A stretch of DNA of 62,740 nt, the filler included, from Globobulimina sp. (lineage: Eukaryota), in the NCBI GenBank assembly GCA_003354225.1. It is 23 parts of 23 records of this genome, joined end to end, with 100 filler letters (N's around TTAATTAATTAA, not from the genome) between each part and the next. Parts side by side here need not be neighbours in the genome. Positions count along the whole stretch, not along the records: positions 43,730 to 46,360 come from PIVH01005616.1; 22 more parts are not named here. One strand, written 5' to 3'. The translations under genes were made by a program, and so were the position numbers. Below are positions 10,713 to 46,460 of the stretch, one piece after another. Within the stretch, counting starts at the first letter, position 1; every line of letters begins with the position of its first letter. Below the pieces are notes generated by a model, which was not told the origin of the DNA, did not search any database, and saw only the letters and a program-made list of their open reading frames with translations.

Positions 10713-11169
10713 TTAGTTAAACTCTTAAGTCAAGTAATACGCAAAAAGATATAACATTAATTTATAAAAAAATTGACTTTGGCCAACATATTATGGCGGC
10801 GAGAAAGAGAATAAAAAGCCGTCATATATTACGGCGNNNNNNNNNNNNNNNNNNNNNNNNNNNNNNNNNNNNNNNNNNNNTTAATTAATTAANNNNNNNN
10901 NNNNNNNNNNNNNNNNNNNNNNNNNNNNNNNNNNNNAGGGAGTATTGGAGGAGAGGAGGAGTATCAAAATTTAGTAACAATAACCAAAGAGGGAGAGGAG
11001 GATACGGCAGAGGAGGAAACCAAAGAGGTAGAGGAAGAGGATGGAGATATTAAAACAAACCATAAAAATGCTTGTCTTTTTAGTTTGTTTTGTCCGGTAA
11101 GGAAATATTTGATTTTTAAATGTGATAATAAAAACACATTTTAATTACATAATTTAATTTCATTTTTTT

Positions 11170-23578: not shown

Positions 23579-24503
23579 GTGTTGTGTGTTTATACAGTTA
23601 TGATTATGAATGGTTTTTATTTTGAGGTTACCGCAACATTACAGACATCAGTAAGATATACATTGATTACTATCATCGCCATGGCAAAATGGATTGCTTT
23701 CCTGTTTATTGTAAGCTATTATTCGTATTATGTTTGTAGTGCTGTCATGTTTTTGTTTATGATAATAATGTTTGTAGCTGTTAATGCCGATAATTATAAT
23801 TTAAATATGATGCAAAAAATTGTTGGCGGCCCCGGTACAGATTTTGGAAGAAGTGTATCCATTTATGATAACATTGCTGTGATCGGCGCAAGTTATGATA
23901 ATAATGGGATAGGTGCCGCATATATATATGAGCGAGTACATGGAGAATGGGGTCAAACAGCACAATTAGTTGCCAGTGCTGGTGCAAGATATGATTGGTT
24001 TGGCCATAGTGTATCCATTTATAATAACGCTGTGTTGATAGGCGCATCTGGTTCAGATTCCGCATATATATTTGAGAAAGTAAATGGAACATGGATTGAA
24101 ACAGCAAAATTAGTTGCTAGTGATGGTGCAGATGGTGATTCTTTTGGTTTTAGTGTATCCATTTGTAATAACATTGCTTTGGTGGGCGCATATCGTGGTG
24201 ATAGTTCTTCAGGTTCCGCCTATATATTTGAGAAAGTAAAAGAAAGATGGATTCAAACAGCAAAATTAGTTGCTAGTGGTGATCATTTTGGTCGTAGTGT
24301 ATCCATTTATAATAACACTGCTTTGGTGGGCGCACATGGTGATGGTAGTTATTCAGGCTCCGCATATATATTTGAGAAAGTAAATGAAACATGGATTGAA
24401 ACAGCAAAATTAGTTGCTAGTGATGGTGTAGCAGAGGATTACTTTGGACGAAGTGTATCCATTTATAATAACATTGCGTTGATAGGCGCAGATGGTGATG
24501 ATA
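23579..24503 (+). CDS. FG-GAP (integrin-alpha-like beta-propeller) repeat protein, truncated
   Basis: About 5 repeats of KLVASDG..D.FG.SVSIYNN.ALIGA..SGSAYIFEKVN.TW.ETA, also visible as DNA repeats. Confidence 0.9.
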
Positions 24504-30069: not shown

Positions 30070-32670
30070 AAATAAACCGCTGTTGTGACGATGTATTAAC
30101 AACTTTTATAACTGACATACAAACTTCATTTGATATGGTCAGTGATACGGATGTGGTTTTTACCGATTTTTCAAAAGCGTATGATAGTGTGTGGCATAAT
30201 GGATTAATTTATAAATTGATAAAAAATAACATCAAAGGAAATATATTGAATGTTTTAGCCTCGTTCATACAAACTCGTTTTACAAAAGTTATAGCTAAAA
30301 AAGCAGAGTCAAATTGGGTGGCACAACCAATTGGTGTCCCTCAAGGATCTGCTCTCTCCCCTATACTATATATAATTTTTACAAATGATTTCAATCTACA
30401 ATTCCCGAATTTGTCCACTTTGCGTGCTTTGCAGATGATACTGCATTTTGGACAAGTCCAGGCACAAAAGACCCTCTCCGATACAAATTCCTCCAAAAAG
30501 AGCTTGATAATTTCAGTAATTGGTGTGATAAATGGCAACTTATAATTAATCCATCCAAATGCGCTTCGATGAATTTTTCTCATGGAAATCCTATGAAATA
30601 CTATCCTAAATACACAATTAAAATTGACTCAATTTCGCATAAACCCAATAAAATAAGTAAATACAATATCCATTCTATTCCAATCCAATACGAGATGTCT
30701 GCCAGATATCTGGGACTATGGTTTGATGAGAAACTTAATTTTAATGCTCATTTCGACAAAATTAAAGCCAAAACAATGCGTAGCTTCTGGCGATTATACT
30801 TTACTATTAAATCTGGAATAAAATTGACACCGTTATCCATTGCTATCCTCTACAAATCTTTAGCGAGATCCAGAATTGAGTTTGGATTAACTCATTACTT
30901 CCCGTATGACTCTAAAAATATACTTAGAACTCTCCAAAATAAATTCCTCCGATTGGCGATTCCATGTCGGTTAGATACACCTTATAAGAGCCCATTACCT
31001 CACCATGCGACAGCTCGCCAGAGCATACTACAATGATTCGTATCATCCATTGCATAAAACATATAATGCCTTATTAAAATACCAAACAACAATACAAAGT
31101 CATAAATATAGAAGAAATAATAAAAACAAACCAAATAAATATGTAAATTTGAATAAAAACCCACTAATAATTGCGTCCAAAGCCTGTCAAAATGACTCCC
31201 AAATAAAAGCATTAACTCAGAGATTTGAAACAATGAATAAAAGCCAAGTCACAGCCTCCCCTACGTATAACTTACGAACTCTCCCAACAAATTATGCTGT
31301 AATCCTTTCTCCCGCAACCCCCTCAATTCCAACTGATAAACTAATAACAATCTCATTTACAGATGGTTCATGTGACCATAATCCAGGCAAAGGAGGATCT
31401 GCAGCTTATATCCCCTCCCAAACATCACAAGAAACGCAATTCAAAAAAGTATATTTCTTTAAAATCCCAGTCACGATTACAACGGCAGAAATTGAGGCAA
31501 TCCATTTAATGATTGATTTCATTCTAAACTGTCCCAATAATGACGAAATCCATTACAAAATATATGTTGATAACTTACCGGTGCTCCAATTCATAAACGG
31601 ACTAAATTATCCACGATATAATGACACAAAAATAATAATTGAGAATATATTTATAAAACTCCTCCAAATCCAACATAATAAACCTAATATTTTTGTAACA
31701 TTCATCAAAATAAAATCACATAATAATCATGAATTTAATGATGAAGTGGATAAATTGGCAAACTTTGCAGCAAAACATACAAAGTTTGACCCAAACTTAT
31801 ATAATGAAATTACATATAATACGACAATTACGCAATTACATAAACAGATTAGATTCAAATGGAGCGAAAAATGGGCGAATAGAAACACGAAATCGACACA
31901 AGACAGCTACAAAATGTATAATAATAACCCAACCCTTCATAATAAATTAAACAGAATAACCAAATACTTAAATAAAGATGAATCAGCAATGTTAAATAGA
32001 ATAATTTCGGGCCACATTGAGTTAAATGCATTTTTATATAAACATAAATTTACAGATACTGATAAGTCTATTATTGAATCCCCGAATTGTAATAACTGTA
32101 ATTTAAATAAAAAAGAATCCATATTTCACTATTTTGTAAAATGTCCCAAATATTCTAACCAAAGACAACGACTAATGAATTCACTCAAATCAATATGGAA
32201 TGGATTTAATAATGGAGGCCGTGTGTATTTAGATGAGTTATTCTATCCATACACTATTAGACGACCTCCAGACATTGAGAGAGAGCTAGATATAGCCACT
32301 CAAGTAGAAATTTGGAAAAAACTTCTTCAATTTATTAAAGAAACTAAAAGATTCAGCTTCCTGTACCAAGTAGATCTAATGAATTTATCTCCGATCATTT
32401 CGGATTAGGAAACTATTGTACAATTTGTACTACTGTAGTTCCAAATATTTTTATTTACCTTTGTTCATTGGTCTCATCCCCAAATAAAAGGGCCTATATC
32501 CTTGTTTTGTGTGTATACTATTTAATTAGTGTTCCCTTCTTGTGTATAAGGTGGAATCTTTAATTGATTTCTTAGTGTTTTAAAGAAAAAAAAAAAAAAA
32601 AAATCTTAAAAACAAATGTAAATCCAAAAAAAAAAAAAAAATAAAATAAAAAAAAAAAAAAAAAAAAAAA

Positions 32671-43729: not shown

Positions 43730-43950
43730 CTGGTCGTAGCGTTTTGGCCTTCGCTTCCGCCGATGTCAGTTTGGCTTGGGCTAACGCCTCTCGTGCTTCG
43801 GCCAAGGCGATTTCTGCATCGTTCAATTCTGTTTCTTTACTAAATTACAAAATTGTGCATAATATCTGTTTAATTTAAAATACTGTGGCAGTACCTGGAT
43901 AAGTCCGAATTTTGTGACTTGTGGTCATTGTTCTGGGCAGAATCAGCCAT
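43730..43950 (-). CDS. Hypothetical coiled-coil protein, 5' part (one 55-nt intron, 43840-43894)
   Basis: Spliced translation MADSAQNNDHKSQNSDLS|SKETELNDAEIALAEAREALAQAKLTSAEAKAKTLRP; canonical GT..AG. Confidence 0.6.
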
Positions 43951-44106
43951 CGATTTCGATATGTATTATTATTAACCGTCTCATCGAATATGGGCAATTA
44001 CTTTATCGGACAAGCAGGTAGTATAACAAATTTGGTTACTGTAGTTTTTCGCGCCAAAGTTTATATTTTTAAATCATAATGTAAGAACAAAAAAGATCGA
44101 ACATCA

Positions 44107-44610
44107 CTATTTCCCACGAATTCGTAAAGCTAGTTTCATATCCCTCGACTTCACAGTTTCTCTGTTGTTTACAGTAGCGCACAAGTTGGCGTCTTGAAAT
44201 ACTTCAACCAAATAGGATTCGGTCGCGTCCTAAAAAATATGTCTGTTCCAGTTTACCCTTAAATGAATTTATAAAAAAGTACTGCACCTGCAACGCGAGA
44301 ATAGCTTTTGCTTGAAATCGACATTTGGTTGGATAGTTTTGGGCTATTTCTTTCACCAAACGTAAAAATGGTCCTTTCTTAATTAACTTTTCGGTGGACT
44401 TTTGATAACGTCGGATTTCCCTTAGTGCGACGGTTCCTGCAAATTACAACCTTTCCGAAATTATATAATTCAAGTCAAAGTCACATTCGTACCTGGTCTG
44501 TATCGATGACCTTTCCTTTTATCGTTTACAATAGACTTGCCTGGGGCAGTTTTATGGCCCACTACCATATTTGGTTTAGTATGATCCATTAAAGGTACTA
44601 ACGAAGCCAT
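44107..44610 (-). CDS. Divergent histone H3 variant (129 aa, three exons)
   Basis: Exons 44610-44493, 44436-44288 and 44229-44107; introns of 56 and 58 nt. Translation [129 protein letters not shown]. Confidence 0.95.
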
Positions 44611-44701
44611 ATTTGATATCAAACAGATATCTATAACGTTCAAAAAGTGGTACTGAATCAAAAAATAATTACTATTTCTTCACTTACTTTTTTTAAATCG
44701 A

Positions 44702-44706
44702 CCAAT
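44702..44706. promoter_or_regulatory. Possible CCAAT box upstream of the H3 gene
   Basis: ACCAATCAG about 90 nt upstream of the H3 ATG. Confidence 0.35.
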
Positions 44707-44809
44707 CAGCGACGAGCAGACAGTCTTAGGACATTACGTAATCGATTTCGTAATATATTATAATAGACGCACAGACCCATTTATAAATATTTCATTCGGT
44801 ATACCTTGT

Positions 44810-45220
44810 TTATATTACTTTAGGCAACAAAGTTATAGGATTAATCGTCAGACCTTTAGATATCTCGTGTTCTTTCAAAACTTGGGTCAAATAGGGACCA
44901 AGTAATGTCAAAAGTTCACAATTTTTCAATAACAATTGTCTACTGACATCGATTCGGGTTTTGATGGGATATTTGGCTTTGTTAGCTTCCTTTAAATTTA
45001 CAAACAATTCTTTATATTTCGTCAAATTTGTGAACAATCTTTTATTTCTACTCAACAATTTCCCGCTGCTGATCAATCGAATAATTTTAACCAAAATTCG
45101 AATCAATTTATCGTCAGTTTCAATAATAAACGATCGCCTTTCGTCCTTTGTTTCTAATTCGGAAATGCTAGTAAGAATTTCCACAACTTTGTCTCCGTTA
45201 GTTTTAAAATCGAAAACCAT
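44810..45220 (-). CDS. Small basic helical protein resembling a conserved Polinton/adintovirus ORF
   Basis: ERRSFIIETDDKLIRILVKIIRLISSGKL..LTKYKELFVNL..RQLLLKNCELLTLLGPYLTQVL follows the pattern RK..L..A...LI..ICE...N.L.G.......L.K.K..LR.L...K..L.Q.GGFL..LL.P.L of Polinton small proteins. Recognised from memory; the GGF motif is absent. Confidence 0.5.
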   Translation of the reverse strand: MVFDFKTNGDKVVEILTSISELETKDERRSFIIETDDKLIRILVKIIRLISSGKLLSRNKRLFTNLTKYKELFVNLKEANKAKYPIKTRIDVSRQLLLKNCELLTLLGPYLTQVLKEHEISKGLTINPITLLPKVI

Positions 45221-45839
45221 ATTTAAATTCCACCAATTGATACAAACCGAAGGGTTTCAACACAAAAAAATACTTTAGATCAGTGATTCATTTCCGAATT
45301 AGTTGTACCGGTGCCAAGTCGATAAACCAGTGACATCTAACTGAATTGTTTCAGTCGCTTCAAGTACGCCTACGCAAGTATACTGTTATTATTTTATGTT
45401 TCAATCCACAAAAATATCAAAGAACCAAAATAAAGAACCAAAATTTATAATAAAGAAATAAAAATTCCCATCACCAAAATAAAATATCTAAAAGTAAAAA
45501 ATCATTTTTTGTGGGTCAGGCCCATCTATGGTAACTATTAACACTATTACTACTATTAGTACTGTAAGTACTATAATAGTTATTGTAAAAAATCATAGTG
45601 TTTATAGCAAATCTGGATAATATATTTTGTGGTGTTCTAATATTATTGTGGTCACTTAGTTTAATATAATCAATTGGGTACATCATGTGTGTACATCTGT
45701 GCCCACAAGTACCCACATGTACCCACATGCACCCAAACAAAATAATGACCCACAAATATAGTTATATACCAATCCATGTAGAGCTATGCCCACAAGTATA
45801 GCCATGTGTCCACAAGTACCCAACCTATGTATATCTGTG

Positions 45840-46270
45840 CCCACCAGTCCCATTTACGTGTCCACTTATACCCACAGCTCCATTTAGGTGTCCACCTGAG
45901 CCCATCTGCCCCATTTATAGTGTCCACCAGTGTCCACCAGTCCCATTTAGGTGTCCACTGGTGCCCACCAGCCCCATATAGGTGTCCACTGGTTCCCACC
46001 AGTCCCATTTACGTGGCCACTGGTGCCCACCAGCCCCATTTAGCCCCATTTACGTGTCCACTGATGCCCACCAGCCCCATTTACGTGTCCACTTGTACCC
46101 TGAGCCCTCCAGCCCCATTTACGTGTCCACCGGTGCCCACCAGCCCCCATTTACGTGTCCACCGGTGCCCACCAGCCCCATTTACGTGTCCACTGGTGCC
46201 CACCGGTCCCATTTACGTGTCCACTGGTGCCCACCAGCCCCACTTACGAGTCCACTGGTGCCCACCAGGG
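45840..46270. repeat. 31-bp GC-rich tandem repeat, about 13 copies
   Basis: Consensus CCAGCCCCATTTACGTGTCCACTGGTGCCCA. Degenerate related sequence from about 45675; copies more uniform toward the right. Confidence 0.95.
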
Positions 46271-46460
46271 GCCCACGAGTCGTGTAGCCTAGGCCTCAAT
46301 ATACTACTATCTCCATACAAAACCATGACACCTGAGCAATGGGAAACATATAAAGAATGGNNNNNNNNNNNNNNNNNNNNNNNNNNNNNNNNNNNNNNNN
46401 NNNNTTAATTAATTAANNNNNNNNNNNNNNNNNNNNNNNNNNNNNNNNNNNNNNNNNNNN

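Follow-up and report, generated by a model that had tools for sequence, protein, structure and literature searches.

We examined a contig of Globobulimina sp. (GenBank assembly GCA_003354225.1) on which a divergent histone H3 gene lies near what may be the end of a mobile element of the Maverick/Polinton type. The window, that is, the whole stretch of 62,740 nucleotides analyzed, consists of 23 contigs of 2629–2634 nt each, set in length order and joined by 100-nt linkers (44 N, TTAATTAATTAA, 44 N). Positions 43730–46360 are exactly segment 17, a single complete contig of 2631 nt (PIVH01005616.1); because the window is made of contigs glued by linkers, its neighbors there are not its genomic neighbors. 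The source genome is eukaryotic and AT-rich, and its introns measure about 55 nt. On the minus strand of the contig are three co-oriented genes: an open reading frame (ORF) of 136 amino acids (aa), an H3-like gene and a third gene, separated by small gaps of about 200 bp (136-aa ORF to H3-like gene) and 157 bp (H3-like to third gene). An initial annotation had reported three compact co-oriented genes, a 31-bp tandem array and an ACTACT motif, and had described the H3 and third genes as spliced; all of these are present where it placed them, with GT..AG introns in both gene models. The features are listed here by window coordinates.

43730–43839, minus strand: third gene, exon 2, partial, running off the left end of the contig (from translation; no Pfam match)
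43895–43950, minus strand: third gene, exon 1, with ATG at 43950, followed by a 55-nt GT..AG intron (43894–43840)
44107–44229, minus strand: H3-like gene, exon 3, 40 codons and TAG (Pfam Histone, E 1.9e-10, profile 86–122)
44288–44436, minus strand: H3-like gene, exon 2 (Pfam Histone, E 1.8e-12, profile 36–84; 71% identity to canonical H3)
44493–44610, minus strand: H3-like gene, exon 1, with ATG at 44610, encoding a divergent N-terminal tail (no Pfam match)
44810–45220, minus strand: 136-aa basic ORF, intronless, with ATG at 45220 and stop at 44812–44810
45680–45823, no strand: degenerate short repeats (10-nt unit, 47-nt family), related to the unit of the array
45837–46268, no strand: 31-bp tandem array, 13.4 copies, 79% matches, 59% G+C, with length variants in a public run
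46303–46308, plus strand: ACTACT, candidate 3′ end motif (AGTAGT on the minus strand), 52 nt before the contig end
46306–46360, no strand: right flank of 55 nt, found in two contexts in the run, with a branch at 46305/46306; unique in the window

The H3-like gene is interrupted by two introns of 56 and 58 nt, both GT..AG, and its coding sequence of 390 nt specifies 129 aa; the model is supported by the Pfam Histone profile, which continues across the proposed splice between exons 2 and 3. The spliced protein was compared locally, and the large-database search was made with exon 2. Against canonical H3 (the copy inside P0016), 66 of 110 residues are identical (60%; 77% similar) from residue 20 to the end, with one 3-residue gap in the tail and none in the histone fold. 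The best local matches of the full-length protein give 54% over 134 columns and 59% over 113 columns. Residues 1–19, before the point where the alignment begins, contain a single lysine and have no counterpart in canonical H3, so that the stretch carrying the best-known distal marks is gone. The H3-type histone fold is present and aligned end to end, together with the proximal tail; the canonical N-terminal tail is absent, its distal part replaced. One glutamine in helix 1 of canonical H3 is a leucine here.

The exon 2 search among longer proteins listed only canonical or fused H3, at 71%, and is silent on closer variants. In IMG/VR, 49 H3-like loci (L003–L051) are 41–73% identical to exon 2, so the search with this exon found no relative closer than 73% (IMG/VR) or 71% (canonical H3). 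Most of the IMG/VR loci are in giant-virus bins, and a few are on short contigs (6–20 kb) of unknown kind. None of the 49 has a gene of the 136-aa family, the two matches obtained being at chance level (E 0.95 and 0.087).

Replication-dependent histone genes are intronless and have a 3′ stem-loop; this gene has two introns, and a scan of the window with Rfam matched no family of any kind. The histone 3′ stem-loop, which we take to be among the Rfam families, would then be absent from the window too. Judged by its sequence, the H3-like gene has the structure of a replication-independent variant. Introns are also found in cellular replacement H3 genes, probably at similar positions. We considered a splice that would join the 136-aa ORF to the H3-like gene and dropped it, as the frame closes (by eye).

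All this could be read as an ordinary chromosomal locus, with a host H3 of replacement or centromeric type, a 136-aa gene that is of host origin or long domesticated, a minisatellite, and an allelic variant or paralogue at 46306. The introns and the lack of an Rfam match suit a replication-independent cellular variant, and the divergent tail and the change of glutamine to leucine in helix 1 agree with a host origin; that replacement is typical of centromeric H3. Among the host readings a centromeric H3 forms one sub-case, favored by the replaced tail and this one helix-1 substitution. Centromeric H3, however, has a longer loop 1 and a strongly diverged fold, whereas here the fold aligns with canonical H3 without a gap, so there is no longer loop 1, and identity reaches 60%.

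The evidence for a mobile element comes in part from the 136-aa gene. Its product is basic (isoelectric point 9.74; 25 K+R against 16 D+E), with nothing above threshold in Pfam and nothing in PHROGs. Among 1,835,955,588 representative proteins it has six relatives at E ≤ 0.001 (E 1e-34 to 7e-6, 51–35% identity). These represent nine sequences, nameless or labeled “hypothetical protein”, from metagenome data, Logan and one NCBI record, and all nine align with the 136-aa protein over its full length. Six of the nine have a basic C-terminal tail; the window protein ends directly after the helical domain, without it. A word-index search with the 136-aa protein gave no match at near lengths, a profile search for the family recovered three members, all already known, the ESM Atlas gave no usable match, and one scan of prokaryote genomes with the relative P0003 found no further one. 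For a host gene such a family would be very rare and patchy (6 clusters in 1.84 billion representatives), which counts against the ordinary locus.

An AlphaFold model of the 136-aa protein was built from a 10-sequence alignment (predicted local distance difference test, pLDDT, 91.5). Its top match among viral models (BFVD) is “GasderminX [Terrapene box turtle adintovirus]”, with probability 1.00 and template modeling (TM) scores of 0.55/0.66 over 118 columns; the second match has a TM of 0.33, so that GasderminX alone stands out. GasderminX is described as a hallmark accessory gene of the virion modules of Beta-class adintoviruses, usually with a basic, pX-like C-terminus (Starrett et al., 2021; PMC8502044). 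The match is weak by E-value, and we give it weight because it agrees with the basic tails of the relatives and with the gene found next to one of them.

That relative, P0004, lies in metagenome contig L002 (3219–3803, plus strand). A stand-alone ORF of 344 aa is read divergently from it, with its first ATG about 70 bp away. The next ORF of L002 overlaps the end of the 344-aa ORF, a compact and virus-like layout. The 344-aa ORF has a weak Pfam rve match (E 0.061). The ESM Atlas clusters nearest to it by features, rve/Chromo integrase clusters among them, score 0.97; the structural comparison gives six rows (TM 0.63–0.73), five of them rve clusters (TM 0.63–0.69), three with Chromo. Preplasmiviricota is the commonest taxon in three of the six structural rows, and one of these three is an “F54H12.3 family” cluster. 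A compact DNA element of several genes that includes a stand-alone integrase fits Mavericks, not long terminal repeat retroelements. Sequence search of the PDB gave no match for the 344-aa ORF and one chance-level row (E 0.98) for the 285-aa ORF of L002, whose single-sequence model is unusable (pLDDT 41.7), and a scan of IMG/VR with the integrase found no relative. The initial annotation had made its proposal depend on a Polinton link for the small ORF, and such a link has now appeared twice, as the best structural match and as a Maverick-type integrase adjoining a relative.

In metagenome contig L001, positions 886–903 downstream of the P0004 gene read AGTAGT..ATTGA.GCCT, resembling the window end on the minus strand (AGTAGT..ATTGAG..CCT). 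This likeness was dropped; its alignment score of 19 equals that of chance matches on other strands.

The end of the contig supplies the remaining evidence. Nine copies of the 31-bp array are within three mismatches of the consensus, against none expected in shuffles; the unit has no second copy elsewhere in the window, and a scan of IMG/VR with it gave no match. One public run (X1) contains the stretch (83% of sampled words), and its contigs were placed on the window contig. Pieces from this run tile 43796–45725 with 0–1 differences, at depths of about 7–9, and include variants of array length. One X1 contig matches from 46306 rightwards, and the 59 letters that precede the match fit nothing on the window contig; because this contig diverges before 46306, the right flank is present in two contexts. 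The window contig ends exactly 55 nt after the branch point, which would be what assemblers leave at a graph branch.

The branch falls inside ACTACT, so that the Maverick end motif stands at the junction with the flank. Vertebrate Mavericks have the ends 5′-(AGT)2//(ACT)2-3′ and 6-bp target duplications (PMC8097293). The 60,540 bases outside the linkers contain nine plus-strand copies of ACTACT, so that chance would put the end of such a motif within 3 nt of a given break about 1 time in 1000. As a hexamer it is common (14 copies counted in the window, 11.7 expected), and this the ordinary chromosomal locus could accommodate. The initial annotation had held that single-copy flanks continuing across 46308 would speak for such a locus; the X1 contig diverges at 46306. 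To be an ordinary locus, the contig would need three coincidences, namely the integrase neighbor, an adintovirus as top structural match, and a branch within 3 nt of the end motif, and we consider this explanation rather unlikely.

In the right flank, 46325–46360 is an ATG-initiated plus-strand frame that, by eye, is open upstream through the alternative junction (30 letters). The insertion site may be a coding exon, uninterrupted at the empty site, for which ten codons are weak evidence. Use of depth as copy number for the terminal region was dropped, since the bins are noisy and summed contig depth is not copy number; in this summed sense the last bin of the contig has about twice the depth of the genes.

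An assembly chimera, in which the repeat array joined unrelated sequences and the layout of the contig is unreal, would account for the low depth of 0.85 in X1 contigs at bin 46194–46281 and for the several variants of array length. Against it, X1 contigs cover 30 of 30 bins, including 46282–46360, and the long pieces tile 43796–45725 almost without differences, which makes a chimera very improbable.

Run X1 also contains a diverged version of the locus in which 25 letters stand in place of 44784–45503 (720 bp, including the entire 136-aa gene). This version joins 44783 to 45504 at a depth of 3.4, against about 9, and has sides of 30–31 letters, as for a bubble between unitigs. The join means that the region upstream of the H3-like gene and the terminal region occur together in at least two versions of the locus. 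It also means that the 136-aa gene is a separable block, which is of importance for another explanation: that a truncated or decayed Maverick remnant, consisting of the terminal repeats and the 136-aa gene, lies beside an ordinary host H3 variant and an ordinary third gene.

The third gene has 55 aa visible, rich in alanine and glutamate, and its product is probably helical. A 24-nt motif, 83% alike in its two copies, occurs at 43949–43972, just upstream of the ATG of the third gene, and at 44741–44764, about 130 nt upstream of the ATG of the H3-like gene; the 136-aa gene is without it. The motif may be a shared promoter element, which by a rough estimate is not clearly above chance.

For the remnant it can be said that the Maverick-related evidence concerns only the 136-aa gene and the end, that the H3-like and third genes have introns and a host-like composition, and that these two have in common the upstream motif that the 136-aa gene lacks. 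Nevertheless, a branch at the end motif of which one run contains both forms suggests a recent or polymorphic insertion, with which an old truncation fits less well, and the gap of only about 200 bp between the 136-aa and H3-like genes bears no sign of a breakpoint. We hold the remnant to be unlikely. Placement of the H3 gene inside the element does depend on the element continuing past the 136-aa gene, and on 2.6 kb a truncated remnant would look identical.

We favor the end of a Maverick/Polinton-type (adintovirus-like) element with an H3 gene as cargo because three independent lines agree: a relative of the 136-aa protein has an integrase gene as its neighbor, the predicted structure matches an adintovirus protein, and run contigs branch at the end motif. 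We regard this reading as evenly balanced between true and false, and several points weigh against it. The 2631-bp contig spans one candidate element end only and has no gene for a polymerase, integrase, packaging ATPase, protease, or major or minor capsid protein; nor was a hallmark gene present in 10 long ORFs scanned from other contigs (43 long ORFs listed). Intact vertebrate Mavericks are described as intronless (PMC8097293), yet the H3-like gene has two introns and the third gene at least one. The (AGT)2//(ACT)2 end motif is on record only for vertebrates, and the 46306 branch may reflect a paralogue or an allelic rearrangement instead of an empty site. The GasderminX match is weak (E 0.11, 14% identity), and the basic, pX-like C-terminal domain is missing from the window protein. 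Its model matched no solved structure (best Foldseek E 2.1; best VIA Z 4.6, in 48,161 chains), no solved gasdermin structure being among the matches listed, and four scans of IMG/VR with the 136-aa family (A1, P0004, P0005, P0003) found no relative. The three genes of the contig have a host-like composition, with 32–53% G+C and 35–47% third-position G+C; the reference was 18 long ORFs sampled from other contigs, mostly ordinary-looking (28–51% and 23–63%, respectively), and this likeness to the host also suits the ordinary locus.

If the element reading is right, the contig would be the last 2.6 kb, on the right-hand side, of an integrated element of the Maverick/Polinton type that terminates at ACTACT (46303–46308) or within 3 nt of it. 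About 600 bp of degenerate and 31-bp repeats would form a subterminal region, which may belong to an inverted terminal repeat. Inwards from there the gene order would be the GasderminX-like accessory gene of 136 aa, the H3 variant, and the third, probably helical protein. The H3 gene would derive from a cellular H3 gene with introns, captured in the form of genomic DNA because two spliceosomal introns are kept, and would have diverged to about 60% identity while the histone fold was kept and the distal tail replaced.

The variant gene would be transcribed and spliced by the host, and its product would pair with host H4 and be laid onto the DNA of the element, either in the nucleus or for packaging. 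As the stretch with lysine 4 and lysine 9 is missing, the resulting nucleosomes would escape the heterochromatin marking placed on lysine 9, and the element would be kept expressed. Alternatively, the H3 variant may help to condense DNA for packaging, beside a GasderminX-like protein whose relatives have a basic tail like that of a core protein. What the analysis shows comprises the gene models, the histone fold, the replacement of the tail, the family links of the 136-aa gene and the branch within ACTACT; that the contig belongs to a full-length element, that its H3 gene is cargo, and what the product of this gene does are points that we infer. The whole proposal, a mobile Maverick/adintovirus-like element that carries a spliced, tail-lost H3 and either wraps its own DNA in nucleosomes that cannot be marked at lysine 9 or packages it, is offered as a tentative one, more probably wrong than right. 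A small unnamed family, that of the 136-aa protein, is tied to Maverick-type elements and has been supplied with a predicted fold.

The other contigs of the window have ordinary eukaryotic genes (ELMO/FYVE, SAM, MYND, an exonuclease) and retroelement ORFs. One retroelement ORF, on the contig at 11158–13167, has an RVT_1 reverse transcriptase; the contig at 30070–32701 has an ORF that, by eye, resembles a reverse transcriptase and another for an RNase H, after which the contig closes with 120 nt of A. A 144-bp tandem repeat (3.9 copies) at 23911–24490 lies within a long ORF and therefore encodes a repeated protein motif. Any feature that appears to cross a linker in window positions 1–62740 is an artefact.

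Compared with the Mavericks/Polintons of vertebrates (Barreat and Katzourakis, 2021; PMC8097293) and nematodes (10.1101/2023.08.22.554363), the contig has the same (ACT)2 motif at the point where the flanks diverge, a long repeat-bearing terminal region within the range of 100–1500 bp reported for inverted repeats, and an accessory gene near the end, a relative of which adjoins a Maverick-type integrase gene. It differs in having no core gene and in that two of its three genes have introns, unlike intact vertebrate elements. With adintovirus GasderminX (Starrett et al., 2021; PMC8502044) the 136-aa protein shares a small helical domain of similar predicted fold and, in six of nine relatives, a basic C-terminal tail like the pX-like domain. 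It differs in its 14% identity (E 0.11), in the absence of the tail from the window copy, and in the lack of likeness to solved gasdermin structures.

Histones are known in several giant-virus families and in polydnaviruses (10.1101/2021.11.30.470311), and remote “Histoid” genes are described in a tailtomavirus and in adomaviruses, where one is paired with virion genes like those of adintoviruses (10.1101/2024.03.25.586562). In both cases, as here on a candidate element, a histone-fold gene is found on a DNA virus or virus-like element, and the Histoid case also has a histone-like gene adjoining adintovirus-like virion genes. Histoids, however, have only remote similarity to histones, whereas the window gene is a plain H3 derivative with 60% identity and spliceosomal introns, on a small, integrating candidate element. 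Giant-virus H3 genes from IMG/VR do not resemble it more closely than cellular H3 does (for exon 2, 73% at the highest against 71%).

With cellular H3 variants, both replacement and centromeric, the gene shares its introns, the lack of a detected 3′ stem-loop, a full fold and a divergent tail. It differs from centromeric H3 in a fold that aligns without a gap, from replacement H3 in its replaced distal tail, and from both in a neighborhood linked to a mobile element. Full-text searches brought up no description of an H3 gene from Mavericks, Polintons or adintoviruses, although supplementary gene lists may contain histone-like accessory genes. If the element reading is true, this would be the first bona fide core histone in the Polinton/adintovirus lineage and an anti-silencing histone borne by a transposon; a transposon supplied with an H3 of its own that lacks the silencing-prone tail would represent a new way to deal with host chromatin.

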